From positions 1,024,404 to 1,088,403 of the forward strand of contig QPGO01000001.1 of assembly GCA_008632985.1 (NCBI GenBank): a stretch of 64,000 nt of DNA. Reading direction: 5' to 3'. The DNA is from Psammoneis japonica. Its lineage: Eukaryota. Under the pieces are notes generated by a model. That model did not search any database. It was not told where the DNA came from and saw only the letters and a program-made list of their open reading frames with translations. Numbering within the stretch: position 1 is the first letter of the stretch; every line of letters begins with the position of its first letter. Below, piece by piece: positions 3,541 to 53,800 of the stretch. Both the position numbers and the translations under genes were made by a program.

Positions 3541-3689
3541 GGGGGGGGGGGGGGGAGTTTTTCTGTTCATCATTCGTTCATGTGGTCGATCCAAACCAGT
3601 CGGGTGACCACTTCTGGGACAGCTTTGGGCGATGCAAAAGCCATTTGGTGGTGCAACAAGCGGCAATCTTTGAGTCATTTGTTTGTCAT

Positions 3690-18658: not shown

Positions 18659-18934
18659 TGACAGAAATTGAAGGCAAATGGCAAGAATTCAAACAATGAC
18701 TCCTTGCTGCTGTCTAAACAGCAGATGAGTCTCCGCTCAGAGACCGTCACAGGAGCCGAAAGACGTGCAAGTCGGTGTGATCGGGCTGCTGTTGTCATCC
18801 TTGTGAGCCTTGTGGCTCGAAAGCAAACTACATCGCGCGTGAACGCGCGGAACTAAAGCACACAAAACTGTGCGCGGCAAACTAAACTGCGCGTGACACT
18901 TCGCGCGCACCCAAATCCTGTTCAAATCCTGTCA
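18659..18934 (-). repeat. 3' LTR of outer Copia
   Basis: tgacagaaattg...aaatcctgtca, adjacent to PPT. Confidence 0.95.
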
Positions 18935-20254: not shown

Positions 20255-20530
20255 TGACAGAAATTGAAGGCAGGTGGCAAGAATTCAAACAATGACTCCT
20301 TGCTGCTGTCTAAATGGCAGATGAGTCTCCGCTCAGAGACCGTTGCAGGAGCCGAAAGACGTGCAAGTCGGCATGGTCGGGCTGCTGTTGTCATTCTTGT
20401 GAGCCTTGTGGCTCGAAAGCAAACTACATCGCGCGTGAACGCGCGGAACTAAAGCACACAAAACTGTGCGCGGCAAACTAAACAGCGCGTGATGCTTCGC
20501 GCGCATCCAAATCCTGTTCAAATCCTGTCA
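20255..20530 (-). repeat. 3' LTR of inner Copia
   Basis: 276-bp copy of the same LTR, PPT adjacent. Confidence 0.95.
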
Positions 20531-23500
20531 CTCCCCAGTTTGCTTGAGGAGCCACAGAAACAGATTCGACTTCGGATGGAATGAAGTTCCAGAACATGAG
20601 GGGTCGGAGAAGGTCCCAGATTTGGGAGTGACCCCAATGCTTGCTGAGAATGTCAGCAGGGTTGCGGGAGCCTTCGATGAAGTGGAACTCAAGGTGACCA
20701 GAGGCAATTGCCTCACGCACACGGTGGAACGACAGTGCGGTGTGTCGCTTGTGTAACTTGGAGTGCGGGATGGTGGCACTGTCTACAACCGACTTGTTGT
20801 CACCGAACATGTAACTAACATTACGGATCGGGACGCCAAGGTGGCGCAGGGTGATGCGCAGGTCGATAATCTGCTCAACACAATTCCTTGCGGCAACAAA
20901 TTCAGATCCGTAGGTTGCAGTCTCCACGGTGGCTTGTTTCTTGGAGAACCAATCAGCCGGGAATTTGTTGAGGAAGTGGAGCATTCCCATGACATGGCGT
21001 CCGGTGAGCATGCAATGGTGCAAGTTTGCATCGACGTAGTGGGTGGCAGTGACGAACTTGCCAAGGGGCGGTGGAGCGTCCTTCGGGATCATCTCTTCTG
21101 CTTCACCACACACGGAATGCATCCATTCATAGGCCGGAGCAGGGAGATCCGAACAGTCGGGCTCTTCCATGCAAACGCGGAGAGCACCGTGTCGCATCTT
21201 GGAGAGGTGCCCACAGACGCGTTTGGCACGATCCAAGTGGCCTTGACGGGGTGCAGCTCGGAAGCTAGAGAGTGACATGACGGCCGTGGCAATGTCAATT
21301 CGACCAAGGGACACTGCCCATTGGAGTGAACCAACAAGAGACTGGAACTTGTGAATGCCATCGGGTCCCAGCAGTTCGGAAGTGTCCAGTTCGGGGTGGT
21401 CACCCTTCTCTAGAGGTGACAGGGCGTTGGTGGCAGGTTTCTCCCCAAACAGTCGGGCGCAGCTGTCGACCATGCGTTCGATGTACTTGCGCGGAGACAG
21501 GCACAAGGTTCCGTCGGGGTCCCGGGAAAAGTCGCAACCCAGATGGAACTCAATGGGTCCCGCACCCTTGAGCTTGAACTTGTGCTTTTCCGTGAGAGTG
21601 TCGACGAAAGATTGAGGGTCCTTCATGGCAATGGCGAGGTCATCCACATAAACGGCAATGCATTCACAGTGGTTGCCGTTCCTGCACATCCAAATGTCGG
21701 GTTCGGTGCGGCAGGGGAAGAAGCCTTCAGCTCGCAGGCAGTCGGCGAAGCGCTCGTGCCAGCGGAGACCGGAGCTGTGGAGTCCATACAGTGCCTTGTG
21801 GATGACAAGGATGTGTCCTTCGAGTCTGCCAAATTTGGGTCCAGCTACAATGTAAAGCTTCTCCTTGGTGGTGGCTTCAAGGTAGGCATTGCCAATGTCG
21901 GTGGCCCATGTCTCTAGCTCGTTGAGTTCGGCCAGGAAAATCATCAGCCGAAGGCCACGGAGGGAGACTACTCCGGAGTAGACACTGTCGATAGGTACGT
22001 CCGTGAGGTGCCCGTCGGCTACGAGTCGTGCCTTGTGGCGACCGTCGTGTTTCACGTCGTACACCAGGTGCACTCGGATCTTCTTGTGTCCCGCAGGAGG
22101 AGTGGAAGACTTGAAGGGCCCGCAGTCATGGAAGACTTCGTATTCGTCGAGTTGGTCCATCTCGAGATTAGTTGCGTCTCCCCACTTGCGGTTGCCGTTG
22201 CGTTCGTCTAGTGACATGGCGTGTTTGTAGTTCCGGGGAACTTCGTGTCCGTGCTTGCAGTGAGGTGCAGTGCAGAAGGAGCGAAGCTTGGCTTGGTTGG
22301 CCATGCGAAACAGCTTCTTTTGGCGCCTCGCGATGGTGCGGAACCGCTTCCAGCCATCCGTGTCGAGGAGTCCGTTCTCTCGTGCATAGATGGCACAGGT
22401 GACGGGGTCGTCCTTGGCGATGATGGCAAGAGGCTCGGACGTGATCTCCCCACTTTCCCATTCAAGCATGATGTTGTAGCTTGAGCCTTTCCAGGTTGGG
22501 TCGTGAGGCTTCAGAGGTCCTTCGTGTGACACGATGCGTCGAAATTTCCAAATGGTGGTGTCTTCGTCTTCTTGCTCAATGTGATTCATGATGTCATTGT
22601 GGGCAAGGACTTCCTCGTATTCGTCATTGTTGACAGAGCAGACGAACTTAGTGAGCTCGGGATTGCCGTTCACTTTCCATTCGTGGTCTTCGACGGCCTT
22701 GACGATGCGAGCTCTGTGGCGTTGTCCGTCCTCTTGTGGCTGCATGAGGAAGGTACGTCCAATGATGTCTTGCGGATCGAAAACTGGCATCTTGGGTGTC
22801 CTGATCTCCCCATCAGGAGAATCGACGGGGTTGTCGTCATGGCGAGATTTGATGATGGGTTCAGGTGGCTCCCCATCAGGAGGATCAAGACGCAGGTTTC
22901 GAACGGCAGGATCGGGGGTGGCGGAGCGAACGTTGGACCGGCAGAGGATCTTCTGAGTCTCGTCAGATAGAATCTTGAAGGTCATCTGGTGGCCGACGTG
23001 CTCAGCAATGCCAACGAAGCGTCCACGCAACTCACGGGATTCGGACGGCCAATCGGAGTCATCGAGGTGGAAGTGCACTGGTTCCCACCAGTGAAAGCGA
23101 AGCAATGGGCTGATGTCCGGGGTGGATCCAGTGAGAGTCTCGAGGGGCGTGCGCCAGTGGAGACGTGGGGACGCTGCATGGTTGAGCATGAAGCACACGT
23201 GCATGAGCGCCAGCAGCCATGTGTGGGCGGGCGAACCAAAACGGTCCATGACAGTGTTCGCCATGCGCTTCACAGTCTGGTGTCGACGCTCGGCAAAGTT
23301 TTGGTGTTGCTGGTGAGGCTCACTTTGCCAGCTGGAGATGAAGAGGGCACGTAGGATCCCGAGCACTTTGTTGCTGATCTCAACTTGAGCACGGTCGCCA
23401 ATGAGTTTGGATGGGGCACCACGTTCACGGATCTGATCCTCGAGTGTGTTGACAAACTCTTTGTCCGTCTAGTGCCGCAGACGTCAGTGACGTAGACTCG

Positions 23501-26500
23501 GTGCCAACAAACAGTTGGGCGCTGGTGCAACCAGAGTCAACGGCCGGGGTGTCGGCACAAACGGTGTCAGTGGCGACAGGCTCGTTGCGGCGGTGCACAT
23601 TAAGGGCGGGGTTGGGTGATTTGCAGGCCTTGCGAAGGTGTGTACCGGCGGGCATGCGGGCGCACTGCGTGGTGCAGTCAAAAGTACGACGGACCGCATC
23701 GGCAGGTAGGAAGCCAAAGCAAGGCCGAAGAGACTCGAAGGGGGGGTCCTTGGGCTGTACAGTGCGCTCCGGAGGTGGAACGTCATCGCCCTTGGGGTCA
23801 ATCGCATGCAGATGACACTCGTAGAACACGTCGTCGTTCGGAATGAGGTGATCATCGAGGGCGGACGCGTGATCGGCAGACAAGGAAGCGGACAAGATGG
23901 TCTCGTTGACAACGACACGGTGACGGTAGTTGCCGCATTCGTCAAATGGGTTGGCAGTGGGATCGTCCTGCAGGTCAGAGATCGCGTCGTACCACTGGTC
24001 GTCGTCAGTGACAGAGTGATCGAGGACGGAAGGGTCCCATGTGTCATCACCGGTGAGGATGACATGGGGCAGGGTGTCCCATTCGGCGTCAGTGCAAGGT
24101 CGCATGGCAACACAAGGCAGGCCAGCCTTGATGTCAATGGGGATGACATGGCCATCAGGAGTGGCAACACGTTGCAAGCCGTTGGGCACCTTGACAGAGC
24201 GATCGTTGACATCCTGTTTGTACCATTCGAGCTGGCCGCAGGAATGGATGGTCTTGCCCTTGCCCGTGTGTGCGCACTGATGGAGGATGGCGATGACGGG
24301 ACCACGCTGGGTCTCAATGACGGCACCAGCGGTGACAACAGGGATGTCCACCAATTGATGATCGTCAATGCCCTGAACGTTGACTTGGCGAGAGGTGCGT
24401 GCAATGACGCAAACGTCGTCGCCAGCAATGCCGCCGTTGGCCCCACGATCAACTAGAGCGCCAGTGCGTGTGGAGCGATGAGCAGAGGCAGAGCAAATGA
24501 CATTGTGGTTGTCAACGCGGCGGCAAGTGCGGCCGTTAAGTTCCATGTCATCTGCAGAAGCTGGCGGGGTAGAGGAAGCGGCGGATGGCCCTGGTCGACT
24601 GGCATTGGGGGCTTGGTTAGGAGACAACAGACGTTGCAGATCACCGGGTGGCAGTGGCTTGCGCTTGGTGAGGTGCGCCAGGATGGGATTGTCTGAAGTG
24701 GCGTCAACATGTGGAGCAGAGTCACCAGAGTCAGCAGGAGTCGTGTTGGACAAGTTGACATCACCGTCACTCCCAAGGCGTTGGTCGTGAAGGTTGGCCG
24801 TAACAGACTCATGGTAGTTGCTGGCTCGCGGGTTGCAGGGAGGCGGACGAGAATGCTCAAGGATGATCGCCTTGGAGGAATCGGGCAATGAATCCCAGAG
24901 CCGTTGGTGGTCGGGAGGGAGACGTCTCCATTGGACACCGGCGAGGCTGGGACCGCGGGTGCAGGCAGCATTGGCTTGAAGGACGTCAACGTCGCTGTCA
25001 ATGTCGTAGAACACATCGTCGGACAGTTCCTCGGAGTGGACGTCGTGTGCGTGTGTGGCGCGTCGGGGAGCTCGAGGTGTCGTCTTGGGTTGAAACGTGC
25101 TGTCGCACTGAGCTGCCGCGGAGAGGAGCAAGCCACAGCATTGATCGCATGTGAGGCTCTTGCCACTCTGCGTGCGATGCTGATCAGCTTGGTTCTTGAC
25201 AGCACGGAGTTCCTCGACAGGGTGCACGGCATTCTCGAGCATGACGCGCTTCTGTCCTTCAGAGAAGTGGTCACTGGCCGGGATGAGTGCCTTGTACTTG
25301 CGCAACTGATCTTGCCAATGAAGGATGAACCCGTGGGTCGGACCTTTCCAAGTGCCATCACCAAGACGTGCGGTGGTGAGGTGCGTGAGCAGGGTGGAGG
25401 ACTCGACAGATGCGCGGGTGGAGGCAAGCGCGTGCTCAGACAAGGAGCGGTAGACGGTCTGTGCGTCAGAAGACCCCACATTTTCGCGAATGAGAGCCTT
25501 GCCCTTGTCGGTGAGAAGGATGCGTTCGAAGACGGCGAACATGTACTTTTGCTGTTCAGCAAAGAGCAGTTTGTCTTCGGGGCTGGTCGGTTTGTACGAC
25601 GAGTCTAGAATGCACTCGACGTCTTGGGCACGGGCTTGTGCCACAAGTGAGGTGTGCCAAGTTTGCCACTGCTTGTCGGATTTGAGGGCCGTGAAAGCGG
25701 TGGGATCACGCTTGATGCCTCGCTTGAAGTCCCGCACCGGGTCGCGTGCCTTGGTCGGGTTGGTGACATGTGGAGGTGCAAGGGGTGAGCTGCCGATGGA
25801 CACAGAAGACATGTGGTCGGGGCTGAGGCGGCAGGCAAGGAACTCGTCATGCGTGAACAAGGAGGAGTCGTTGGCAACGTCAAGACCTTTGTGTGCTTTG
25901 ACAATGTACAGACTGACTAGTGCTGCTAACATGTTCTTATAACCACGGGGCAAAGGGATTGCATCAGTGCCGTTGTCGTACTCAAGCGAGTCGATTTGGG
26001 ACGGTATGAACGTGAATAGTTCCTGATGCGAGTCCGTGCCGTCTTGGGCCAAAGCCAAACGAAGAGGACTCCCAGCACCTTGGGCAAGCACGGTTCCAAC
26101 AACGTGCTCGAAACCATCGGTTTGTTGCTGACGAGTGAGAACCATGGTAGACAAAAGTGGTGTCAGGACAATCAATTCTGGTTGGGAAGCGAAGGTAGAC
26201 TCGAAACTTGGGTGAGAATAGACTTGACGTGAAACAGACTTGACTTGAAATCTTGAACTATCTTAAAATCAGAAGTCACCGGGCTTTGTTATCCCGTTCG
26301 TTGTCAAGTGCTAAACTTCCTATCCGGTCCGTAGAGTTGTGCCGGCACGTCCGAACCCGCAGCTGGTGGCGCTTTGGGTTGCTTACGAGCAGAGTAGCGG
26401 GTTGTAAACCCCTGCAGGTAAGCTGACTAGAGGTGGACAAGACCCCGAACCGTTCTTATTTTATATCGGTTGGATTTCCCGATCAGGCTGGCCAGTTGAC

Positions 26501-26852
26501 GTGGGCGTCAGGCGCTGTGAACGAACGAACAAACGCGGGAAAGCACCCTCGCCCCAACGTAGGCTGTAATCACGGCTACTTGCTCTCACAGTCGTCCTCG
26601 TGGACCTAGTAGAACTGTAGAGCACCAGCAGTCCGGGGTAGATCAGGTGCAATGGACTCGGTGTGCTTGTAGAGTGGCAGCAAAACCGCAGTCCGAAGAG
26701 TGGATAAAGGTTCTTGGCCGTGAAGACATGCATGCACACACACATGTCTTCAGCGACTAAGATCCTTGAATGTGTAGGGTTCTTGACCGTTAACCGAGGA
26801 ATGGGCACGTCAAGGGATGTTGATCAAGGACAGACTTGGATGTGACCGTTGA
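20255..26852 (-). mobile_element. Inner Copia copy (UTR-gag-pol-3' LTR; 5' LTR missing)
   Basis: ORFs 23425..26175 and 20478..23366 (split by two 1-bp deletions near 23470-23495); LTR 20255-20530 abuts the outer RT. Confidence 0.9.
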
Positions 26853-29800
26853 CAGTTGCGTCTCCCCACTTGCGGTTGCCGTTGCGTTCGTCCAGTGACA
26901 TGGCGTGTTTGCAGCTCCGGGGAACTTCGCATCCGCACTTGCAGCGAGGTGCAGTGCGGAAGGAGCGAAGCTTGGCTTGGTTGGCCATGCGAAATGGCTT
27001 CTTTTGGCGCCTCGCGATGGTGCGGAACCGCTTCCAGCCATCCGTGTCAAGGAGTCCGTTCTCTCGTGCGTAGATGGCACAGGTGACGGGGTCGTCCTTG
27101 GCGATGATGGCAAGAGGCTCGGACGTGATCTCCCCACTTTCCCATTCAAGCATGATGTTGTAGCTTGAGCCTTTCCAGGTTGGGTCGTGAGGCTTCAGAG
27201 GTCCTTCGTGTGACACGATGCGTCGAAATTTCCAAACAGTGGTGTCTTCGTCTTCTTGCTCAATGTGATTCATGATGTCATTGCAGGCAAGGACTTCCTC
27301 GTGTTCGTCATTGTTGACAGAGCAGACGAACTTAGTGAGCTCGGGATTGCCGTTCACTTTCCATTCGTGGTCTTCGACGGCCTTGACGATGCGAGCTCTG
27401 TGGCGTTGTCCATCCTCTTGTGGCTGCATGAGGAAGGTGCGTCCAATGATGTCTTGCGGATCGAAAACTGGCATCTTGGGTGTCCTGATCTCCCCATCAG
27501 GAGAATCGACGGGGTTGTCGTCATGGCGAGATTTGATGATGGGTTCAGGTGGCTCCCCATCAGGAGGATCAAGACGCAGGTTTCGAACGGCAGGATCGGT
27601 GGCAGCGGAGCGGATGTTGGACCGGCAGAGGATCTTCTGAGTCTCGTCAGATAGAATCTTGAAGGTCATCTGGTGGCCGACGTGCTCAGCAATGCCAACG
27701 AAGCGTCCACGCAACTCACGGGATTCGGACGGCCAATCGGAGTCATCGAGGTGGAAGCACACGGGTTCCCACCAGTGAAAGCAAAGCAATGGGCTGATGT
27801 CCGGGGTGGAGCCAGTGAGAGTCTTGAGGGGCGTGCGCCAGTGGAGACGTGGGGACGCTGTGTGGTTGAGCACGAAGCACACGCACATGAGCGCCAGCAG
27901 CCATGTGTGGGCGGGCGAACCAAAACGATCCATGACGGTGTTCGCCATGCGCTTCACGGTCTGGTGTCGACGCTCGGCAAAGTTTTGGTGTTGCTGGTGA
28001 GGCTCACTTTGCCAGCTGGAGATGAAGAGGGCGCGTAGGATCCCGAGCACTTTGTTGCTGATCTCAACTTGAGCACGGTCGCCAATGAGTTTGGATGGGG
28101 CACCACGTTCACGGATCTGATCCTCGAGTGTGTTGACAAACTCTTTGTCCGTCTTAGTGCCGTAGACGTCAGTGACGGTAGACTCGGTGCCAACAAACAG
28201 TTGGGCGCTGGTGCAACCAGAGTCGACGGCCGGGGTGTCGGCACAAACGGTGTCAGTGGCGACAGGCTCGTTGCGGCGGTGCACATTGAGGGCGGGGTTG
28301 GGTGATTTGCAGGCTTTCCTAAGGTGTGCACCGGCGGGCATGCGGGCGCACTGCGTGGTGCAGTCAAAAGTACGACGGACCGCATCGGCAGGTAGGAAGC
28401 CAAAGTGAGGCCGAAGAGACTCGAAGGGGGGGTCCTTGGGCTGTACAGTGCGCTCCGGAGGCGGAACGTCATCGTCCTTGGGGTCAATCGCATGTAGATG
28501 ACACTCGTGGAACACGTCGTCGTTCGGAATGAGGTGATCATCGAGGGCGGACGCGTGATCGGCAGACAAGGAAGCGGACAAGATGGTCTCGTTGACAACG
28601 ACACGGTGACGGTAGTTGCCGCATTCGTCAAATGGGTTGGCAGTGGGATCGTCCTGCAGGTCAGAGATCGCGTCGTGCCACTGGTCGTCGTCAGTGACAG
28701 AGTGATCGAGGACGGAAGGGTCCCATGTGTCATCACCGGTGAGGATGACATGGGGCAGGGTGTCCCATTCGGCGTCAGTGCAAGGTCGCATGGCAACACA
28801 AGGCAGGCCAGCCTTGATGTCAATGGGGATGACATGGCCATCAGGAGTGGCAACACGTTGCAAGCCGTTGGGCACCTTGACAGAGCGATCGTTGACATCC
28901 TGTTTGCACCATTCGAGCTGGCCGCAGGAATGGATGGTCTTGCCCTTGCCCGTGTGTGTGCACTGATGGAGGATGGCGATGACGGGACCACGCTGGGTCT
29001 CAATGACGGCACCAGCGGTGACAACAGGGATGTCCACCAATTGATGATCGTCAATGCCCTGAACGTTGACTTGGCGAGAGGTGCGTGCAATGACGCAAAC
29101 GTCGTCGCCAGCAATGCCGCCGTTGGCCCCACGATCGACTAGAGCGCCAGTGCGTGTGGAGCGATGAGCAGAGGCAGAGCAAATGACATTGTGGTTGTCA
29201 ACGCGGCGGCAAGTGCGGCCGTTAAGTTCCATGTCATCTGCAGAAGCTGGCGGGGTAGAGGAAGCGGCGGATGGCCCCAGTCGACTGGCATTGGGGGCTT
29301 GGTTAGGAGACAACAGACGTTGCAGATCACCGGGTGGCAGTGGCTTGCGCTTGGTGAGGTGCGCCAGGATGGGATCATCCGAAGTGGCGTCCACATTTGG
29401 AGCAGAGTCACCAGAGTCAGCAGGAGTCGTGTTGGACAAGTTGACATCACCGTCACTCCCAAGGCGTTGGTCGTGAAGGTTGGCCGTAACAGACTCATGG
29501 CAGTTGCTGGCTCGCGGGTTGCGGGGAGGCGGACGAGAATGCTCAAGGATGATCGCCTTGGAGGAATCGGGCAACGAATCCCAGATCCGTTGGTGGTCGG
29601 GAGGGAGACGTCTCCATTGGTCACCGGTGAGGCTGGGACCGCGGGTGCAGGCAGCATTGGCCTGAAGGACGTCAATGTCACTGTCAATGTCGTAGAACAC
29701 ATCGTCGGATGGTTCCTCGGAGCAGACGTCGTGTGCGTGTGTGGCGCGTCGGGGAGCTCGAGGTGTCGTCTTGGGTTGAAACGTGCTGTCGTGCTGAGCT

Positions 29801-30861
29801 GCCGCGGAGAGGAGCAAGCCACAGCATTGATCGCATGTGAGGCTCTTGCCACTCTGTGTACGATGCTGATCAGCTTGGTTCTTGACAGCACGGAGTTCCT
29901 CGACAGGGTGCACGGCATTCTCGAGCATGACGCGCTTCTGTCCTTCAGAGAAGTGGTCACTGGCCGGGATGAGTGCCTCGCACTTGCGCAACTGATCTTG
30001 CCAATGAAGGATGAACCCGTGGGTCGGACCTTTCCAAGCACCATCACCAAGACGTGCGGTGGTGAGGTGCGTGAGCAGGGTGGAGGACTCGACAGATGCG
30101 CGGGTGGAGGCAAGCGCGCACTCAGACAAGGCGCGGCAGACGGTCTGTGCGTCAGAAGACCCCACATTTTCGCGAATGAGAGCCTTGCCCTTGTCGGTGA
30201 GAAGGATGCGTTCGAAGACGGCGAACATGTGCTTTTGCTGTTCAGCAAAGAGCAGTTTGTCTTCGGGGCTGGTCGGTTTGTACGACGAGTCTAGAATGCA
30301 CTCGATGTCTTGGGCACGGGCTTGTGCCACAAGTGAGGTGTGCCAAGTGTGCCACTGCTTGTCGGATTTGAGAGCCGTGAAAGCGGTGGGATCACGCTTG
30401 ATGCCTCGCTTGAAGTCCCGCACCGGGTCGCGTGCCTTGGTCGGGTTGGTGACATGCGGAGGTGCAAGGGGTGAGCTGCCGATGGACACAGAAGACATGC
30501 AGTCGGGGCTGAGGCGGCAGGCAAGGAACTCGTCATGCGTGAACAAAGAGGAGTCGTTGGCAACGTCAAGACCTTTGTGTGCTTTGACAATGTGCAGACT
30601 AACTGGTGCTGCTAACATGTTCTTATGACCATGGGGCAAAGGGATCACATCAGTGCCGTTGTCGCACTCAAGCGAGTCGATTTGGGACGGCATGAACGTG
30701 AATGGTTCCTGACACGAGTCCGTGCCGTCTTGGGCCAAAGCCAAACGAAGAGGACTCCCAGCACCTTGGGCAAGCACAGTTCCAACAACGTGCTCGAAAC
30801 CATCGGTTTGTTGCTGACGAGTGAGAACCATGGCAGACAAAAGTGGTGTCAGGACAATCAA
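26853..30861 (-). pseudogene. gag-PR-IN of outer Copia, truncated before RT
   Basis: 1345-aa ORF: LVDRGANGG protease; VATDTV / LIGDRAQVE / NFAERR integrase core; homology breaks at ...WGDAT where the inner UTR begins. Confidence 0.9.
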
Positions 30862-31770
30862 TTCTGGCTGGGAAGCGAAGGTAGACTCGAAACTTGGGTG
30901 AGAACAGACTTGACTTGAAATGGACTTGACTTGAAATCTTGAACTATCTTAAAATCAGAAGTCGCCGGGCTTTGCCATCCCGTTCGTTGTCAAGTGCTAA
31001 ACTTCCCATCCGGTCCGTAGAGTTGTGCCGGCACGTCCGAACCCGCAGCTGGTGGTGCTTTGGGTTGCTTGCAAGCGGAGCAGCGGGTTGCAAACCCCTG
31101 CAGGTGAGCTGACTGGAGGTGGACAAGACCCCCGAACCGTTCTCATTTTATGTCGGTTGGATTTCCCGATCAGGCTGGCCAGTTGACACAGGCGTCAGGC
31201 GCTGTGGACGAACGAACAAACGCGGGAAAGCACCCTCGCCCCAATGCAGGCTGCAATCACGGCTGCTTGCTCTCACAGTCGTCCTCGTGGACCCAGTGGA
31301 ACTGCAGAGCACCAGCAGTCCGGGGTGGATCAGGTGCAATGGACTCGGTGTGCTTGTAGAGTGGCAGCAAAACCGCAGTCCGAAGAGTGGGTAAAGGTTC
31401 TTGGCCGTGAAGATGTGTGTGTGCATGCATGTCTTCAGCGACTGAGATCCTTGAACATGCAGGGTTCTTGACCGTTAACCGAGGAATGGGTGCATCAAGG
31501 GATGTTGATCAAGGACAGACTTGGATGTGACCGTTGAACACATGTCTTCAGCGATCAAAGGTGGCACAATCAATCCAGACATCCAGCGGCAAGGAGACTT
31601 GACGGTGACGTTAACTTCCTGCCGATGCCCTGGCATTGAATGCGCGTGGACTTGCCGATGTATGTAGAACATGTGCGGAGGTCCACGTGGGATTGAAATG
31701 GCGTCGTTGGTAAATCAACGACGACGATGGCGGTTGCTCAATGGGTTGACAATGAGCAAGACTGTCAATC

Positions 31771-41785: not shown

Positions 41786-42691
41786 TTATCCCCCCGGTAC
41801 AAATCTGTCAGGCCTCTTCCTTTTCCTACAGTTCTTGAAATCAAAAAGGTCCGGCTTGTTACAAAGCAAAGAGTATACCGCAGAAATCCTTGTAGGATTC
41901 GTGGTGTCTTTGCCGATTTTGGCCAGCGCGTGGGCCCACACGTCTGGGTGCAAGTCATTGCGAGCCAGCAGCTGCTGACTGAGATGCTCCAACAAGATTT
42001 TGCCATAGGGTAGGTCACTGCTCTCAAGAGCACAATCCAGTGGCGTTTCCCCCCATCTGTCCAATGCGTTTAAATCGGCCCCATTCTTCAAGAGCAGCTT
42101 CAAGATTCCGACGGCACTCTCTCTCCTGCAACTCCAACGGGCCCAGGCATGAAGAGGCGTGAAGCCCTGATTGTCCATGGCATTGATGGCCGCACCATTC
42201 TCCAAGAGAACTTGCACAACCTCCGAGTGCTCCTTGTACACTGCATAAAAAAGAGGTGTTTCCCCAATGCGATTTTTTGCATCCACGTCAGCATTGTTCT
42301 GCAGCAGTAACACGCACATTTCCCTTGAAACAACACAATGCAATGGCGTATTTCCAACACCGGACGCCAAATTGACTGGAGCGCCGCGTGACACCAGCAT
42401 TCGAGCAACGGGCACAAGGTCCTTGAAGCATGCCTTGTGGAGTGCTGAGAAACCGCCTGAATCCGCCGTTGCGCTTGCCCCTGCGTCAAGTAACAGCTGG
42501 ACTTTGCGATCGCGGTCGGCAACAGTGTGACGAGCAATCGTCCAAAATAGGATGCTCTTGTAATTCACGACTGCATTTGCGTCAACGCCGCTTTGCAACA
42601 ACTGTTCAACCTGCTCGGCTGTGCCACTTTCCACAGCTTGTAGGAGCCGACGAGCTGCTGCGTTGATCTCATCATCAACCTGCTCGTCCAT
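41786..42691 (-). CDS. Ankyrin-repeat protein, 301 aa
   Basis: Repeated GxTPLH/TPLF...LLxxGAD/INA motifs; intact ORF with Tyr retained. Confidence 0.9.
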   Translation of the reverse strand: MDEQVDDEINAAARRLLQAVESGTAEQVEQLLQSGVDANAVVNYKSILFWTIARHTVADRDRKVQLLLDAGASATADSGGFSALHKACFKDLVPVARMLVSRGAPVNLASGVGNTPLHCVVSREMCVLLLQNNADVDAKNRIGETPLFYAVYKEHSEVVQVLLENGAAINAMDNQGFTPLHAWARWSCRRESAVGILKLLLKNGADLNALDRWGETPLDCALESSDLPYGKILLEHLSQQLLARNDLHPDVWAHALAKIGKDTTNPTRISAVYSLLCNKPDLFDFKNCRKRKRPDRFVPGG

Positions 42692-42876
42692 TTTTTCTAC
42701 TCCAGATCAAAGCCAACGTCATGCACGTTCAATCACTCAACGCAAGGAGTTTCAAGGGGTTGGAGACGAAACCTTACTGTGATGCGTGATGGTGTGTTGA
42801 TGATGATGTTGTTGTGATTATGCTGAAAGCGGCGCGCCGCGGGCATTGCTGTGGGCGGAAAATCCACAGGCGCGCG

Positions 42877-45800
42877 CTGCTGGGCAAAGACTTCATGATC
42901 GTGGCTGAATAACGATAAGCCCATAACCCAAACTCGACATTTGACTTCAAGTCAAAGTAAGCTAAATGAATAGTGTAAAACGTTAAGTGTCATTTCCACT
43001 TCGACACAGAGACAGCTATATGATTAGTGCAAATCGTTAAGTGTCATTTACACTTCGACACAAAGAAAGCTAAATGCTTAACGGCAGTGGTCAGATTTCA
43101 AATTCTGAGCAATACAGAAATGTCAATGATGAATAAGGATTTTAGATCCCTTCTGCCCTTAATGTCATTATTCCAATGCCACTAATGAATACACAAAAAA
43201 TGAATTTGTATTCCATCCTTTTCGTAAACTTTGATCTATCGGCATTTTCAATACGAGTGCGCGATGACAACAATAAAGCATGCTTGTATGTGTCATGGTC
43301 ATAAGCTGTAAGGCATACCGTCACATTTGGATTGAACTCGGGGATGTTGGTGTCGAAAGTAGCCATTTGTTTGACATTCGTGATTTTTCATCGCCCACAA
43401 ATTGGGATTTCAACTGAGTCGAGTTGATGTTGGACGTGTGCAAAGCACTGCGTTTGATGAAACAATTGAGGGCTCTGGGCTTGTGGCATTTTATGCCATG
43501 GAGACTTAAAATGGTGAATGGGTTGACAATCAAGCCAGTGATCGGGTTTGCCAACATTTCCAAAAATGTGACAACAAAAATTGCATCACTCAACAACCAA
43601 CAACCCCTCAAGAGAAAGAAACAAGAAAAGTGATTCCTCTTTGCACTTGAATTAAAAGAGACAACAATGCACAACAAATGTTCAAGAAGGACAAGAAGCT
43701 CTTGAATGCATGAAACAAGAAGAGAGTCAATGAACCACTCTTGTTTCGAACCTCTTGCCCTGTTCTCTCCTCCATGGTGGTTGGTTGAAAGGTTGGTGGT
43801 GGTTTTTTGTGAGACTTGCAGCTTGATGCATGTTGATGCATGAACAAATGGCCCATGTGTGGTGTCACCTTTGGAATGTGCCACTTGTGGAGCTTGAGTG
43901 GACAGCTCTCTGTGCTCAAGCTTTGTCCGCCAAATGCTCCGTCAAAGTCCAGATGCTGCCCCATCCCACCCAACCATTGAAAAAAAAACAGTTCTTGCAA
44001 AATGCTGTTGCCTGTTTCCCTCTTCCTCTGCAGAGCAGCTCTCTTGGTGACAGTGCCACCCACACACCAGACTGTGCTCAAGAATGCTTTCCAACCTGCC
44101 AGCCAAGACACCCAGCTCGGGGCTGTGTGGGCTCGAATCTCTCTCAAGACACAAGCTGCTGAGCATGTTTCTGGCACTGGCGGCAATGCTGAGCCCTCCT
44201 TCCTGTTTGACTTCCCAGGGGTGTGCCCAGACTGCCTGCATGCTGGCCCAACCACAAGAGTTGCTGTTTTGCCAGTTTTGTCAGCAGGATGTGCCAAGGC
44301 TGCTCTGGCCATGTGTGCCTGGCTGGCACCACAATGCAAAGACAGGTGCGACAGCACTTTCTGCTGTCAGCAAAGAGTGTGAGCTGGCTGGACTGCCCAA
44401 CCCCACACTTCACAGTTCCTTGGCAGTCACTCCAAATCAAGTGCCAGCTTGGGACCAACTGCACCTGGCTGGTTGCAATGCAAAGACAGCTGTGACAGCA
44501 ATTTGTGACAACAAGAGAGAGTGTGAGCTGGCTGGGCTCCTGACCCCAGCACAGCCACTTCACAGCCCCTCAGCACTGGCTCCCAATCAAATGCCAACTT
44601 GGTGCCAACAGCCACAAAGCCATTGTTGCAGATCTCTGCACCTGGCCCCTCACACAACATGTGTGGCCTTTGCCAAATGGGCCCCTGGCCAACTGCAGAC
44701 TCCTCATGGCTTGCAACAAGCCACCACAACACAGAGCATTGTGGGGTGAATGCAGCACAGCTTGAGCAAGCAAGCCATGCTGGGAGCACCAAGAGCTGGC
44801 TGCTGTCCTGGAGCTCCATTCAAAGCTGAGCTGGGCTGCTTGACTCCTTGGTGGGTGGCACATGCTTGCTTGGCATCACATTGTTGCCAAGCAGAGCCAC
44901 ATGGCATGTGCCCACCATTTGTGCCTGCAACAGTGATCCCTGGCCACAAAAAAGCCAACAAAAAGTTGAGCCTGCTTTTGTGGTTGAAGGGTGAAGAAAT
45001 TGTGAGTGAGGTTGGGTTCAAGAGTTTGTTGGCAATGCCAAGTGGGCAGCCAAAGAGAGGCGCCAAAAATGACTGTGTGAAGTGTCTCTCACTCATTTCT
45101 CAAGAGGAGCTTGTGCTCATGATGCGGGGTCTGAAGCAAGCACCAGTCAAGAGGACAACAATTCTTTCCCTCTCTGTTCCACCCAAAACACAGCCTTTGA
45201 GTCAATGTGGTGCTCCTTCAACAATTGATGCACACACTGGGAGGAGCAGCTGTGGAGCCAGGGCAGCAGGCCTGGCAGGGCTTGGCTCACAACCAAGCTG
45301 GGCTTCTCAGCTTGGCAGCACACACTCAGAGTCACATTGTTGCCCTCCTGCAGCTGCAATGTGCCCCACTCTTTGCACCTGCAGCAACCACCCTGGACCA
45401 AAAGAAGCCAGTGCAACTCTGGCCCTGGTTGCATGGTCAAATTGTGTGTGTGTTCAACTGTCGGAATCCCCTCCTTTTTTCCCTTTTCCTTTAAACCGGC
45501 CACGAATATGAAAAAATTGCCCTGCTGGGCAAAGACTTCATGATCGTGGCTGAATAACGATAAGCCCATAACCCAAACTCGACATTTGACTTCAAGTCAA
45601 AGTAAGCTAAATGAATAGTGTAAAACGTTAAGTGTCATTTCCACTTCGACACAGAGACAGCTATATGATTAGTGCAAATCGTTAAGTGTCATTTACACTT
45701 CGACACAAAGAAAGCTAAATGCTTAACGGCAGTGGTCAGATTTCAAATTCTGAGCAATACAGAAATGTCAATGATGAATAAGGATTTTAGATCCCTTCTG

Positions 45801-48800
45801 CCCTTAATGTCATTATTCCAATGCCACTAATGAATACACAAAAAATGAATTTGTATTCCATCCTTTTCGTAAACTTTGATCTATCGGCATTTTCAATACG
45901 AGTACGCGATGACAACAATAAAGCATGCTTGTATGTGTCATGGTCATAAGCTGTAAGGCATGCCGTCACATTTGGATTGAACTCGGGGATGTTGGTGTCG
46001 AAAGCAGCCATTTGTTTGACATTCGTGATTTTTCATCGCCCACAAATTGGGATTTCAACTGAGTCGAGTTGATGTTGGACGTGTGCAAAGCACTGCGTTT
46101 GATGAAACAATTGAGGGCTCTGGGCTTGTGGCATTTTATGCCATGGAGACTTAAAATGGTGAATGGGTTGACAATCAAGCCAGTGATCGGGTTTGCCAAC
46201 ATTTCCAAAAATGTGACAACAAAAATTGCATCACTCAACAACCAACAACCCCTCAAGAGAAAGAAACAAGAAAAGTGATTCCTCTTTGCACTTGAATTAA
46301 AAGAGACAACAATGCACAACAAATGTTCAAGAAGGACAAGAAGCTCTTGAATGCATGAAACAAGAAGAGAGTCAATGAACCACTCTTGTTTCGAACCTCT
46401 TGCCCTGTTCTCTCCTCCATGGTGGTTGGTTGAAAGGTTGGTGGTGGTTTTTTGTGAGACTTGCAGCTTGATGCATGTTGATGCATGAACAAATGGCCCA
46501 TGTGTGGTGTCACCTTTGGAATGTGCCACTTGTGGAGCTTGAGTGGACAGCTCTCTGTGCTCAAGCTTTGTCCGCCAAATGCTCCGTCAAAGTCCAGATG
46601 CTGCCCCATCCCACCCAACCATTGAAAAAAAAACAGTTCTTGCAAAATGCTGTTGCCTGTTTCCCTCTTCCTCTGCAGAGCAGCTCTCTTGGTGACAGTG
46701 CCACCCACACACCAGACTGTGCTCAAGAATGCTTTCCAACCTGCCAGCCAAGACACCCAGCTCGGGGCTGTGTGGGCTCGAATCTCTCTCAAGACACAAG
46801 CTGCTGAGCATGTTTCTGGCACTGGCGGCAATGCTGAGCCCTCCTTCCTGTTTGACTTCCCAGGGGTGTGCCCAGACTGCCTGCACGCTGGCCCAACCAC
46901 AAGAGTTGCTGTTTTGCCAGTTTTGTCAGCAGGATGTGCCAAGGCTGCTCTGGCCATGTGTGCCTGGCTGGCACCACAATGCAAAGACAGGTGTGACAGC
47001 ACTTTCTGCTGTCAGCAAAGAGTGTGAGCTGGCTGGACTGCCCAACCCCACACTTCACAGTTCCTTGGCAGTCACTCCAAATCAAGTGCCAGCTTGGGAC
47101 CAACTGCACCTGGCTGGTTGCAATGCAAAGACAGCTGTGACAGCAATTTGTGACAACAAGAGAGAGTGTGAGCTGGCTGGGCTCCTGACCCCAGCACAGC
47201 CACTTCACAGCCCCTCAGCACTGGCTCCCAATCAAATGCCAACTTGGTGCCAACAGCCACAAAGCCATTGTTGCAGATCTCTGCACCTGGCCCCTCACAC
47301 AACATGTGTGGCCTTTGCCAAATGGGCCCCTGGCCAACTGCAGACTCCTCATGGCTTGCAACAAGCCACCACAACACAGAGCATTGTGGGGTGAATGCAG
47401 CACAGCTTGAGCAAGCAAGCCATGCTGGGAGCACCAAGAGCTGGCTGCTGTCCTGGAGCTCCATTCAAAGCTGAGCTGGGCTGCTTGACTCCTTGGTGGG
47501 TGGCACATGCTTGCTTGGCATCACATTGTTGCCAAGCAGAGCCACATGGCATGTGCCCACCATTTGTGCCTGCAACAGTGATCCCTGGCCACAAAAAAGC
47601 CAACAAAAAGTTGAGCCTGCTTTTGTGGTTGAAGGGTGAAGAAATTGTGAGTGAGGTTGGGTTCAAGAGTTTGTTGGCAATGCCAAGTGGGCAGCCAAAG
47701 AGAGGCGCCAAAAATGACTGTGTGAAGTGTCTCTCACTCATTTCTCAAGAGGAGCTTGTGCTCATGATGCGGGGTCTGAAGCAAGCACCAGTCAAGAGGA
47801 CAACAATTCTTTCCCTCTCTGTTCCACCCAAAACACAGCCTTTGAGTCAATGTGGTGCTCCTTCAACAATTGATGCACACACTGGGAGGAGCAGCTGTGG
47901 AGCCAGGGCAGCAGGCCTGGCAGGGCTTGGCTCACAACCAAGCTGGGCTTCTCAGCTTGGCAGCACACACTCAGAGTCACATTGTTGCCCTCCTGCAGCT
48001 GCAATGTGCCCCACTCTTTGCACCTGCAGCAACCACCCTGGACCAAAAGAAGCCAGTGCAACTCTGGCCCTGGTTGCATGGTCAAATTGTGTGTGTGTTC
48101 AACTGTCGGAATCCCCTCCTTTTTTCCCTTTTCCTTTAAACCGGCCACGAATATGAAAAAATTGCCCTGCTGGGCAAAGACTTCATGATCGTGGCTGAAT
48201 AACGATAAGCCCATAACCCAAACTCGACATTTGACTTCAAGTCAAAGTAAGCTAAATGAATAGTGTAAAACGTTAAGTGTCATTTCCACTTCGACACAGA
48301 GACAGCTATATGATTAGTGCAAATCGTTAAGTGTCATTTACACTTCGACACAAAGAAAGCTAAATGCTTAACGGCAGTGGTCAGATTTCAAATTCTGAGC
48401 AATACAGAAATGTCAATGATGAATAAGGATTTTAGATCCCTTCTGCCCTTAATGTCATTATTCCAATGCCACTAATGAATGCACAAAAAATGAATTTGTG
48501 TTCCATCCTTTTCGTAAACTTTGATCTATCGGCATTTTCAATACGAGTGCGCGATGACAACAATAAAGCATGCTTGTATGTGTCATGGTCATAAGCTGTA
48601 AGGCATGCCGTCACATTTGGATTGAACTCGGGGATGTTGGTGTCGAAAGCAGCCATTTGTTTGACATTCGTGATTTTTCATCGCCCACAAATTGGGATTT
48701 CAACTGAGTCGAGTTGATGTTGGACGTGTGCAAAGCACTGCGTTTGATGAAACAATTGAGGGCTCTGGGCTTGTGGCATTTTATGCCATGGAGACTTAAA

Positions 48801-50808
48801 ATGGTGAATGGGTTGACAATCAAGCCAGTGATCGGGTTTGCCAACATTTCCAAAAATGTGACAACAAAAATTGCATCACTCAACAACCAACAACCCCTCA
48901 AGAGAAAGAAACAAGAAAAGTGATTCCTCTTTGCACTTGAATTAAAAGAGACAACAATGCACAACAAATGTTCAAGAAGGACAAGAAGCTCTTGAATGCA
49001 TGAAACAAGAAGAGAGTCAATGAACCACTCTTGTTTCGAACCTCTTGCCCTGTTCTCTCCTCCATGGTGGTTGGTTGAAAGGTTGGTGGTGGTTTTTTGT
49101 GAGACTTGCAGCTTGATGCATGTTGATGCATGAACAAATGGCCCATGTGTGGTGTCACCTTTGGAATGTGCCACTTGTGGAGCTTGAGTGGACAGCTCTC
49201 TGTGCTCAAGCTTTGTCCGCCAAATGCTCCGTCAAAGTCCAGATGCTGCCCCATCCCACCCAACCATTGAAAAAAAAACAGTTCTTGCAAAATGCTGTTG
49301 CCTGTTTCCCTCTTCCTCTGCAGAGCAGCTCTCTTGGTGACAGTGCCACCCACACACCAGACTGTGCTCAAGAATGCTTTCCAACCTGCCAGCCAAGACA
49401 CCCAGCTCGGGGCTGTGTGGGCTCGAATCTCTCTCAAGACACAAGCTGCTGAGCATGTTTCTGGCACTGGCGGCAATGCTGAGCCCTCCTTCCTGTTTGA
49501 CTTCCCAGGGGTGTGCCCAGACTGCCTGCATGCTGGCCCAACCACAAGAGTTGCTGTTTGCCAGTTTTGTCAGCAGGATGTGCCAAGGCTGTTCTGGCCA
49601 TGTGTGCCTGGCTGCACCACAATGCAAAGACAGGTGCGACAGCACTTTCTGCTGTCAGCAAAGAGTGTGAGCTGGCTGGACTGCCCAACCCCACACTTCA
49701 CAGTTCCTTGGCAGTCACTCCAAATCAAGTGCCAGCTTGGGACCAACTGCACCTGGCTGGTTGCAATGCAAAGACAGCTGTGACAGCAATTTGTGACAAC
49801 AAGAGAGAGTGTGAGCTGGCTGGGCTCCTGACCCCAGCACAGCCACTTCACAGCCCCTCAGCACTGGCTCCCAATCAAATGCCAACTTGGTGCCAACAGC
49901 CACAAAGCCATTGTTGCAGATCTCTGCACCTGGCCCCTCACACAACATGTGTGGCCTTTGCCAAATGGGCCCCTGGCCAACTGCAGACTCCTCATGGCTT
50001 GCAACAAGCCACCACAACACAGAGCATTGTGGGGTGAATGCAGCACAGCTTGAGCAAGCAAGCCATGCTGGGAGCACCAAGAGCTGGCTGCTGTCCTGGA
50101 GCTCCATTCAAAGCTGAGCTGGGCTGCTTGACTCCTTGGTGGGTGGCACATGCTTGCTTGGCATCACATTGTTGCCAAGCAGAGCCACATGGCATGTGCC
50201 CACCATTTGTGCCTGCAACAGTGATCCCTGGCCACAAAAAGCCAACAAAAAGTTGAGCCTGCTTTTGTGGTTGAAGGGTGAAGAAATTGTGAGTGAGGTT
50301 GGGTTCAAGAGTTTGTTGGCAATGCCAAGTGGGCAGCCAAAGAGAGGCGCCAAAAATGACTGTGTGAAGTGTCTCTCACTCATTTCTCAAGAGGAGCTTG
50401 TGCTCATGATGCGGGGTCTGAAGCAAGCACCAGTCAAGAGGACAACAATTCTTTCCCTCTCTGTTCCACCCAAAACACAGCCTTTGAGTCAATGTGGTGC
50501 TCCTTCAACAATTGATGCACACACTGGGAGGAGCAGCTGTGGAGCCAGGGCAGCAGGCCTGGCAGGGCTTGGCTCACAACCAAGCTGGGCTTCTCAGCTT
50601 GGCAGCACACACTCAGAGTCACATTGTTGCCCTCCTGCAGCTGCAATGTGCCCCACTCTTTGCACCTGCAGCAACCACCCTGGACCAAAAGAAGCCAGTG
50701 CAACTCTGGCCCTGGTTGCATGGTCAAATTGTGTGTGTGTTCAACTGTCGGAATCCCCTCCTTTTTTCCCTTTTCCTTTAAACCGGCCACGAATATGAAA
50801 AAATTGCC
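42877..50808. repeat. Tandem triplication of a 2645-bp unit (42877-45521, 45522-48166, 48167-50808)
   Basis: Near-identical units; each has about 0.5 kb of TA-containing ankyrin-upstream DNA followed by about 2.1 kb of TA-depleted DNA. Confidence 0.95.
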
Positions 50809-50809
50809 G

Positions 50810-53800
50810 CCTTGTGTGCGCAAGTGTGCGTACTGTAGAATTTGTACCGGCATGTGCGGCAATGAAAAAAAGTCTGTCAATCAATGCGTTTTGTGGTTTT
50901 GGTGAACGCTGGACAGACTGGATTTCGTTCTCGTGCTCCAAACGCACTGAAAGGCAGACTTCTTTCAGCAAGCAGCTCGCTCGCTGACTCTCTCTACTAG
51001 CTGCCGGCAGGGAGAAGAGGCGGCCCACATGTCGCAGTTGTTCTGCTGACAACCACATTGGCAAACCCCTGTCCCAACAGAATCCGTTGTTCCCATCAGT
51101 TGCAGCAAAAGAGAGATGAAATGGGGCCCCAGAGTCACAACCACTGTCTCCTGCTTTTCCATTGACCCTCGCTGGCCACTTGCAGGGCCACTGAGCAAAG
51201 GTGTGTGCACTGCCTCTTTGTCTGTCACAGCTGGTGGGGCACATAGAGCAGTGCCAATTCTGACACATCCAGTTTTTGGTGGAGCTGTCAGCACATGGCA
51301 GCTCATCAGGGAACGTCGTTGTTGCAGCGCACTTGCTCTCTGCACATTCAAAGGGTGCCACGTGCCACAGCAAAGACATCAAAGATTTTCTCTTTCTTGT
51401 CACAGTGGACACCTGTGTGCTGAAAATGCACTCTTGACTCTTGCTCTGTGCTGTTGGGTGGCAACTCGCAACTCAGTCATGCTTCTGCCAGTGTGACTGC
51501 CTTGGTGCGGAGCACTGGAGAGCAAGAATGGTGTTGCTCTGTGTGCGCTCTTCTGGGGATCATGACCTGTGCAGACGAGCACACAAAAAGTCAGCATCTC
51601 CCCCTCATCCAACACTTGCCATTGATGTTTGGTTGGTTGCAGGCAGCTGTTTTTCTGAAAATGCAGAGCCAAGGTTCCATTGTGGTCAAGGGCATGATGT
51701 TGCGGCATCATTGTTGACAGCTCAGGTGCAGAGGCAACAGCTTTGTTGGATGTTCTGTCAAGCAACAAGTGCTGCTCTTGAGTGACAGACTTGCTTGAAG
51801 CTGCAAACAGCTTTGAACATTGTCAAAACCACACCCGTCAACCTTGAGGCTTCTCTTCTGCCAGCCAACACAAGAGGAATGCTGCCGCCATTGTTTGCTC
51901 ACTTTCACCTGTGATGACAATCTCCTTTTTGCCAGCAAGTTCATTTTCACAGTTCTTGTGAATGGTGCCCATCTGTTGGCCAAGTTTGTCTGTTGTGCCC
52001 AATGCATCATGGGCATCCACAGCTTGTTTTGTGCTGGTGTCAGGAGCACATGAGCCAAGATCAGCAGTGATGTCCTCGGGCTTTTTCTCGATGCACCAAA
52101 TGATGGCAGCCTCAACAGCTTGTGCATGTGGCTCAATTTCATGGTTGAGAGCATCAAAAAATCAGTCATCCTGCTTGGTGACAGCAGCTCAAGCTGTCTG
52201 CTTGAAGAGCAGTACCCACATGGTGTGGCGCTGGAGAGTCTCAAGCTGTTGCACCATCTGGCTCCCTGAGGCAGCAGCCAACAACCATTGTTGGCATGTT
52301 TGAAGCTCCTCACTTGGCACTGACAGCTTTTCCACATGATCAACAGCCTGTGCACAGAGAGCATTGTGAGTGCCTTGGAGATCCCTTGTCTCCGAGAGCG
52401 GTGTTTGGTCTCCAAAAGACGTGCGAGATGACTCTCTCTCTCACAGGGGTGGTGCTTCAGAGCTGCTGGCACATTCATGAGTTTTGTTGTGAGCACAGAT
52501 CCAGAGACACACCAAACAAAAGGGGGCTGTTGCTGCAAACCACTCTTTTGTGTGGTCACTGCTTGGTCTGCAGCAATGTGTGCACTGGACTTGCCGCTCT
52601 CAGCACAGGAGGTTTTTTTGTTGCACAGAGGGGGTCTTGTGCATTGTGCATTGCCCAAAAGCAGCACATTTCAATGAAAAATGATGTGGCAATGCATCCA
52701 ATGTTTTCAGCATGATTTTACATTGAGTGTCTTAGACTCACCCTTGCAAAGTTTGGTGGAGGCAAGCAAGGCTGTCAATGGGAGTCACTGCGGCTCTCAG
52801 AGTCATTGCGCAGAAATTGTGCAGAAGAGTGCCAGAAAAAATTGTTGTCAGTCTGTCTGCCCATCCATGTTCGCTTGTCTCAACTTCTCGGGAAATCAAT
52901 TGAAATGTTGTCTGACCAAAGGCACTGCTCTTCACCATGTAAATCAGAGTGCCTTTGGTCAGATGACATTTCAATTGAGTTCCCGAAAAGTCACTAGCTC
53001 CAATCACCCTCTCGCATGACATTGTGCACATGTTTTCTACACAACTTGGCACCTTTCCTCATGTGAAAATGCCAATTATGACTCTTGCAACATTTTTTCG
53101 AATGATTCCCATTTTGTGCTGTCCACTTGCTGCAAATTGCCAATCACTTGGCAAAACTGCACGCAAAGCTCCTTCGTTCGCCTCTGAAGGGAAAATTTCT
53201 CTTCGTTGCGATTTTGCACCAGATCCCTGTAGAAATGTGCAGCGCAAAGTCTTGCCGCTTGGCGATGACTCACAAACTCCCCCAGACACAATGCAACATG
53301 GTGAAGCACGGGAATGCATCCAACAATGGCGGCATCCATTGTCGTCAATTCCGCAGCTCTCAACCACGCTTCCTTGCTTCAGCATGATCTTAACGGCAAC
53401 AAAACAGAGCTTTGGTGCTTGCTTTGTTTCCGTTGGCACTTTCACTCACATTTGTTCTCTGTCTGCGTCATTTTGACACCCCAACCAGAGCGTTTCGCAC
53501 AGTGTTTGCTTTTGTTCAGTGGCGCTGAGGCTTCAGTTGTCTTTCAACAACCAAAGCTTGTGAAAGCTGTTCAAATGTTGATTACATGGTGTTGCAGTGT
53601 GGGTGTTCGAGGTGATGGAAGGGCCACAAATGGCTTGCACTTGAGAAAAACAGATCGCGTGACTTGTCATTCTCATGAGTGGGATCTTGAACCAGGGAAC
53701 GTAGCCCATTGAGCAAAATGTTGCATGACAGATAGATGCGCCAGAAGGCAGAGTTTGATTTTGTTGATGAAATTGAATGCATGGCACGCAGCAGTGCAAA

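Follow-up and report, generated by a model that had tools for sequence, protein, structure and literature searches.

TA-type differences among three near-identical array units in Psammoneis japonica: candidate footprints of a regional TA-erasing process

The stretch of DNA analyzed here (termed the window herein) comprises 64 kb of contig QPGO01000001.1 of Psammoneis japonica (assembly GCA_008632985.1, positions 1,024,404 to 1,088,403 of the forward strand). It contains a tandem array of three units that starts 185 bp upstream of the ATG of an ankyrin gene, and the units differ from one another at five sites that read TA in at least one unit and TG or CA in at least one other. In our judgment, there is about an even chance that these five differences are recent footprints of a regional process that turns TA into TG/CA, left at one edge of a short island of normal composition that each unit carries.

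A three-unit array upstream of the ankyrin gene

The 2645-bp triplication proposed in the first-pass annotation of this DNA was confirmed by BLAST and MAFFT, which gave exactly three full units (3.000) that are pairwise 99.7-99.8% identical (BLAST). Each unit is bipartite, consisting of an island of 480-510 bp with normal TA and CG content and a TA-free stretch of 1834-1837 bp. The array and its immediate surroundings have the following features (coordinates are those of the window; o/e, ratio of observed to expected counts; ORF, open reading frame).

41786..42706 (-): ankyrin-repeat ORF (Pfam Ank, E 5e-33), with an in-frame ATG at 42691-42689
42877..45521 (+): array unit 1, 2645 bp (BLAST, MAFFT)
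45522..48166 (+): array unit 2, 2645 bp, with 5 substitutions relative to unit 1 (BLAST, MAFFT)
48167..50808 (+): array unit 3, 2642 bp, with three 1-bp deletions and three unit-specific substitutions (BLAST, MAFFT)
42877..43360: TA/CG-normal island of unit 1 (TA o/e 0.67, CG o/e 0.91; GC content 0.38-0.39 across the islands)
45492-46005: TA/CG-normal island of unit 2 (TA o/e 0.68, CG o/e 0.94)
48137-48650: TA/CG-normal island of unit 3 (TA o/e 0.63, CG o/e 0.92)
43655..45491: TA-free stretch of unit 1 (0 TA versus 102 expected, 10 CG versus 127 expected)
46300-48136: TA-free stretch of unit 2
48945-50778: TA-free stretch of unit 3
42953..43076: internal tandem repeat of 54 bp (2.3 copies), inside the island and present in every unit
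43145..43366 (-): putative 74-codon ORF covering all five variable sites
50809..51000: right flank, a TA/CG-normal patch of ~200 bp, followed by a TA- and CG-poor domain (~51000 to ~55400)

The normal composition of the right-flank patch suggests that the array is located in normal promoter-side DNA and not within erased DNA. A description of the array as 2.53 units with a long terminal repeat (LTR)-internal-LTR structure was also considered and rejected, since the gapless comparison at a lag of 2645 had been broken by a 1-bp deletion and the alignment gives 3.0 units.

As to the unit itself, the inverted repeats found were only two, both short and imperfect, and no Pfam family was found in its four long ORFs, nor in four ORFs of the island region at E values of up to 1. 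In the 74-codon ORF, the variable sites read Thr/Ala, Tyr/His, and Val/Ala, and two are synonymous. Compared with 1.84 billion proteins, this ORF had a single, weak match (E 4e-6), to a 1478-residue repeat protein; the match is driven by five repeats of one motif, the variable Tyr/His codon lies outside it, and no polarity was obtained from it.

Differences among the three units

In total, 8 substitutions, all of them transitions, and three 1-bp deletions distinguish the units (MAFFT). The substitutions are listed with their positions and letters in the order of units 1, 2, and 3.

43191/45836/48481: A, A, G (TA versus TG/CA)
43210/45855/48500: A, A, G (TA versus TG/CA)
43259/45904/48549: G, A, G (TA versus TG/CA)
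43317/45962/48607: A, G, G (TA versus TG/CA)
43360/46005/48650: T, C, C (TA versus TG/CA)
44241/46886/49531: T, C, T (TG versus CG; TA-free part)
44349/46994/49637: C, T, C (CG versus TG; TA-free part)
44303/46948/49592: C, C, T (neither TA nor CG type; TA-free part)

All five TA-type sites, each exactly where the first-pass annotation had placed it, fall in the island, and unit 3 is in the TG/CA state at every one of them, as had also been noted. Two of the three substitutions in the TA-free part are of the CG/TG type, again in line with the annotation, and altogether 7 of the 8 substitutions sit at TA or CG. The 1-bp deletions are confined to unit 3, where they occur in runs of T4, G2, and A6.

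Ordinary neutral transitions that landed on TA, TG, or CA by chance could in principle produce such a pattern: only eight substitutions are available, TG and CA are the commonest dinucleotides, and 24-29% of transitions are of this type. However, at offsets 0-500 of the unit, 145 of the 500 possible transitions interconvert TA and TG/CA, and five hits out of five give a P value of 0.002 (P = 0.024 for at least 5 TA-type changes among the 8 of the whole unit). Changes that are neither of the TA nor of the CG type amount to one per ~7500 such bases, compared with 5 variable sites among the 38 TA sites. The sequence context is also skewed, with 4 of the 5 sites reading TAC and one TAT on the strand whose A changes, compared with 14 TAC among 76 contexts (P = 0.005); a G follows at +2 at one of the five sites, and the strand bias of 4 to 1 is not significant. 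With the bias recurring in the tandem duplication dupB described below, chance is an extremely improbable source, and the array differences are unlikely to be due to it, though the sample is small.

TA-poor domains and other duplications in the window

Over the whole 64-kb window, the TA o/e is 0.29. Gene regions have a TA o/e of 0.6-0.8 and a CG o/e of ~1, and the affected domains have a TA o/e of 0.00-0.15, a CG o/e of 0.05-0.3, and a CA/TG o/e of ~1.8-2.0, with the switch between TA-poor domains and their normal neighbors taking place within a few hundred bases. The loss of TpA is matched by a gain of CpA plus TpG (CA/TG o/e of 1.7-2.0 where the TA o/e is <0.1), and the TA-free repeats have a GC content of ~0.5-0.55. 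Host-type genes recognized by Pfam are found in the composition-normal parts of the window, and the copia reverse transcriptase (RVT_2, Pfam) is located in TA-poor DNA at 18.9-23.5 kb. The differences among the array units bear the signature of the process by which the adjoining DNA lost its TA, as the first-pass annotation had claimed. The relevant features outside the array are as follows.

18659..21852: dupA, tandem duplication of the copia reverse transcriptase region (copies 18659-20256 and 20255-21852; 95.8% identity)
22170..31537: dupB, tandem duplication (copies 22170-26852 and 26854-31537; 96.5% identity)
34867-36912: sulfatase-like ORF (Pfam)
37616-41203: ORF of 1195 residues with Laminin_G_3 (below the Pfam cutoff) and WW domains (Pfam)

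DupA (1.6 kb) and dupB (4.7 kb) are nested tandem duplications of copia DNA in which one copy is far more TA eroded.

A TpA bias in other young duplications, on which the first-pass annotation had made its proposal depend, is present. Differences adjoining another difference were skipped (59 in dupB and 22 in dupA). The 99 classified differences in dupB comprise 42 of the TA type, 34 of the CG type, 11 other transitions, and 12 transversions; the TA type thus makes up 42 of 87 transitions (P = 7e-7 versus 24% expected), and the TA is held 38:4 by one copy. For dupA, the 45 classified differences comprise 12 of the TA type (12/41 transitions, with a skew of 11:1), 19 of the CG type, 10 other transitions, and 4 transversions. 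As a baseline, a 79% identical gene duplicate in normal DNA (56036-57536 and 57981-59487) shows 18 TA-type changes among 81 transitions, and 90 transversions. Judged from these copies, a TA-stripping process has acted after the other young duplications in the window.

There is no strand bias in dupA (5:7) or dupB (20:22). When contexts are read on the strand whose A changes, the changed fractions in the two duplications together are 30/66 for TAC, 5/20 for TAT, 7/36 for TAA, and 12/64 for TAG, the contrast between TAC and the other contexts (24/120) being significant (P = 0.0004). The TAC preference is common to the array and to dupA and dupB, so that even in their fine-scale context the array differences resemble older, independent events. 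In old erased DNA, surviving TAs are scarcest in the contexts ATAT and ATAC/GTAT, a count that is confounded by back-mutation.

The TA-poor DNA (20478-30948 and other TA-free parts) also holds stop-free frames of up to 1374 codons on both strands, with no Pfam family. Because TAA and TAG have been lost, leaving TGA as the sole stop codon, long ORFs in such DNA are no evidence of genes. Searches for Rfam families and tRNAs across the whole window found none.

Direction of change

The array itself gives no direction for the five sites, because three copies make every site a 2:1 split. The copia DNA offers polarity: its two tandem reverse transcriptase copies were aligned with 20 homologues of the 2191 found, and columns with at least 80% Tyr were considered (the comparison between copies omits the initial 13 differing columns, where the start of copy a is ragged). 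Copy b keeps Tyr at 8 of 17 conserved Tyr columns, the others being 5 Cys, 3 His, and 1 Phe; copy a keeps it at 3 of 14, with 5 Cys, 5 His, and 1 Phe. Conserved Cys (4/4) and His (16/16; 13/13) had in no case turned into Tyr. Between the copies, Tyr was lost in one copy at 4 columns, and in the region 19865-22178 (-), both copies had lost Tyr at 3 conserved columns, one having turned to Cys and its counterpart to His each time. The polarised events thus comprise 10 Tyr losses and 0 gains. Changes of Arg to His or Cys, which are of the CG-decay type, are present in the copies as well.

Finding Cys in one copy and His in the other implies independent hits on the same TA, on either strand, after the duplication. 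Parallel hits at one TA site are accordingly common in this window, and at the level of the window the process runs from TA to TG/CA. The copia relatives P0001, P0002, and P0111 (contigs of 1.3-2.4 Mb) had higher bit scores than closer-looking metagenome matches, yet lower identity (53-58%), and could be copies eroded in this genome or in one related to it.

These data bear on a mutator of opposite direction, in which C to T at CpA (G to A at TpG) would have created the TAs of units 1 and 2 in the manner of repeat-induced point mutation (RIP). Counting the majority letter as ancestral favors it, since TA is then derived at 3 of the 5 sites and the most parsimonious history needs 5 events. It is nevertheless very unlikely: the polarised events in the window run 10 to 0 the opposite way, conserved Cys and His never become Tyr, the repeats are TA-free rather than TA-rich, and read contigs of the repeat family described below appear to hold TA at two of the five sites.

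An array-free form of the locus and a high-copy repeat family

The reads that were compared stem from one sample (four runs, as contigs), which may be the sample from which the window was assembled. A contig of 1269 bases with a depth of 52.4 joins position 42875 to position 50809 via 11 filler letters, 7 of which equal the bases straddling the left junction of the array. Therefore, a form of the locus without the entire 7.9-kb array exists. At 42761 the window reads T but this contig reads C, and it is exactly at this position that a contig from one of the other runs terminates; the C/T difference and the contig ends fit two haplotypes in one sample. The array junctions and the 11-letter filler showed no clear target-site duplication and no Helitron-like ends, and the two forms may have originated by insertion of a trimer, by local amplification, or by loss from the other form. 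Since the units are 99.7-99.8% alike and an array-free form is found in the read contigs, the array is young.

The summed depth over the unit interior is 1000-4600, compared with 52 in the flank, and among the 311 contigs matching the locus, 114 are only 90-95% alike. The unit therefore belongs to a repeat family of high copy number whose copies have diverged, the abundant contigs departing from the array units by ~8%. Over the TA-free part, only 2 of the 31 listed changes between family contigs and window restore TA, and none shows TG versus CA at one site; it appears, then, that the 1.8-kb TA-free part of each unit had already lost its TAs when the family began to spread. The first-pass annotation had regarded this depleted DNA as the source of an inward spread, a claim that finds little support: erased before the array existed, the TA-free part would therefore be inherited and not a demonstrated local source of spreading.

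In the island, by comparison, the family contigs keep TA, and their differences are mostly of other kinds. Two abundant family contigs (depths of 1902 and 3043) extend over sites 43191 and 43360, which lie ~33 letters inside the contig ends, and the listed differences include none at either site; this may hint that the family has TA at both sites and that TA was lost in unit 3 at the former and in units 2 and 3 at the latter.

Membership in a family raises the possibility that the same mutator acted, only not in place: the units could be copies or conversion products of family members among which these TA sites already varied, so that the differences would predate the triplication and would be uninformative on whether the process is active at the locus now. 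The high copy number (depth of 1000-4600 versus 52, with 114 of 311 contigs 90-95% alike), a family variant in the reads with CA at another island TA (45954), and the conflicting groupings of the units (2 with 3 at two sites, 1 with 3 at two), which fit conversion or a mosaic, all agree with this scenario. The units, however, are 99.7-99.8% alike and differ from the abundant family contigs by ~8%, and exactly 3.000 units fit local amplification of one defined unit. We consider an origin elsewhere in the family unlikely.

Short reads cannot polish such a repeat, and the differences might also reflect errors of assembly or base calling, with consensus errors possibly falling at modified TA or CG bases. 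Consistent with that, unit 3, the most deviant, also has the three 1-bp deletions, 6 of the 11 differences are specific to it, and none of the five sites is confirmed by a read contig. Yet units 1 and 2, which have no indel between them, are also distinguished by three TA-type and two CG-type sites, the TAC preference matches that of older duplicates whose divergence (3.5-4.2%) is far above error rates, and two stretches of the TA-free sequence (155 and 173 bases) have exact matches in short-read contigs. An artifact of this kind therefore seems rather improbable.

Weighing recent change in place

The position of the five sites is one point of support for recent hits at an island edge. They span no more than 170 bp (P = 0.02 for five among the 38 TA sites), and all lie at offsets of at least 313 (P = 0.006), both tests having been chosen post hoc. 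The clustering beside depleted DNA that the first-pass annotation described is upheld as far as the span of ~170 bp goes (P = 0.02, post hoc); the three TAs that come closest to the TA-free part, however, are unchanged. Similarly, its view that the process is recent or ongoing is plausible with regard to age, given the 99.7-99.8% identity and the array-free form, whereas spreading inwards finds little support.

Several observations weigh against the reading that the sites were TA and were changed in place. The TAs at offsets 615, 630, and 776, although closer to the TA-free part, are unchanged in all units, as are those at the other edge of the island, variable sites being found at one edge only. 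No CG of the island varies, though 8 CGs sit among the variable TAs. The island belongs to a high-copy family that is ~8% diverged, yet it keeps a TA o/e of 0.63-0.68, suggesting that repetition by itself is not enough to attract the process.

A majority rule would give 2 TA losses (in unit 3) and 3 TA gains (in units 1 and 2). A history consisting only of losses takes at least 6 events, compared with 5 when direction is free, and requires a parallel change at 43259/48549 (offset 382); the pattern in which unit 1 equals unit 3 is shared by the CG site 44241/49531 (offset 1364). No outgroup copy of the array unit was found by BLAST elsewhere in the window, two degenerate 32-letter patterns had no match in metagenome contigs, and the first of them had none in prokaryote genome contigs or viral contigs. 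Finally, the read contigs lend no confirmation to the number of units, to the junctions of the array-bearing form, or to the letters specific to single units, and some assembly errors may have escaped correction, as hinted by the three 1-bp deletions of unit 3.

DISCUSSION

Set against these points, change in place by a regional process remains our preferred reading, with the even chance that we gave it above. In the proposed sequence of events, a process acting on silent, CG-poor DNA would turn TA into TG/CA, that is, A:T into G:C at TpA, where a change of A to G and one of T to C are indistinguishable because TpA is its own complement. The host of the recent hits would be the three-unit array of a high-copy family, located 185 bp upstream of the ankyrin gene and missing from the other form of the locus; the five sites would originally have been TA, changed after the array had formed, at one edge of the TA/CG-normal island of each unit. 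As for the chemistry, we consider it likeliest that an enzyme deaminates adenine to inosine, preferably in 5'-TAC-3', in domains where CG decays as well. These CG-decaying domains are presumably methylated silent chromatin, and since TA change and CG decay share the same sharp-bordered domains, the mutator would be guided by silent, probably methylated chromatin and not by repetition.

RIP in Neurospora and other ascomycetes is a regional, dinucleotide-specific transition process that kills repeats and transposons and spares genes, and it may hit the copies of one duplication unequally. It turns CpA into TpA, so that the DNA becomes AT-rich and TA-rich. The present case is similar in that repeats suffer regional transition mutation and that copies of one duplication are unequally hit. 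In contrast to RIP, TA is destroyed here, the GC content stays at 0.5-0.55, and the direction is opposite. The trigger also compares imperfectly: RIP is set off by duplication, and here copies of young duplications are hit, yet the high-copy island keeps a TA o/e of 0.63-0.68.

CpG decay results from deamination of 5-methylcytosine in methylated silent DNA. The loss of CG to TG/CA in the window resembles such decay and shares its borders with the TA loss, and 2 of the 8 array differences are of that type; CpG decay cannot explain the TpA changes, however, and methylation is presumed here.

The TA-erasing signature as such has already been published for Bigelowiella natans, in which integrated DNA of giant viruses and virophages undergoes hypermutation restricted to TpA (Mettrop et al., bioRxiv 10.64898/2026.01.13.699255, 2026 preprint). 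Of 231 new mutations in two viral insertions, 230 changed A to G or T to C, always at TpA; the process was caught live in mutation-accumulation lines, and the insertions still hold 3.3% TpA (10.64898/2026.01.13.699255). An ADAT2/TadA-like DNA adenine deaminase was proposed on grounds other than a TAC context, and the main text of the preprint reports no preference at the +1 base and names no diatom (10.64898/2026.01.13.699255). A full-text literature search found this preprint and no account of TpA loss in diatoms.

The two cases agree in the change itself (A to G or T to C at TpA), in its regional character with normal neighbors, and in the loss of TpA with gain of CpA plus TpG. Reverse transcriptase and transposase domains are enriched among the TpA-poor genes of Bigelowiella, and in the window copia elements are targets, the array unit being a high-copy repeat without recognizable protein or RNA. 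Unlike in Bigelowiella, where lines were followed live, the process is reconstructed here from copies, and unlike the viral insertions, the transposon and repeat DNA of the window has zero TA over kilobases and has lost CG in addition.

The review PMC10027721 gives UACG as the motif of the natural tRNA target of TadA/ADAT2. Deamination of A to inosine yields A to G, and the U before and the C after the target A in that motif match the TAC preference seen here, whereas only 1 of the 5 array sites has the G that the motif places at +2. TadA-derived base editors have a matching sequence preference. In nature, TadA and ADAT2 act on RNA, and the likeness is one of specificity and does not prove the enzyme. 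That a TadA-like, TAC-specific, chromatin-guided DNA adenine deaminase is active today and is editing the edges of unmethylated islands in a structural variant confined to one form of the locus is a tentative proposal, which we doubt more than we believe.

Caution is warranted in reading such regions, since a repeat family can inherit DNA devoid of TA and continue to spread after the erasure. Two features go beyond the main text on Bigelowiella: the TAC preference, pointing to a TadA/ADAT2-like enzyme, and the borders shared with CG decay, which suggest that the guide is silent, methylated chromatin. Should the five sites be fresh hits, the array would be a rare place to watch a TA-erasing genome defense at work, offering three near-identical targets, a known edge, and the array-free form of the locus as a control. 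If a deaminase is indeed active today, the rate and spread of its action would be directly measurable, and the same defense would operate in two distant algal lineages.

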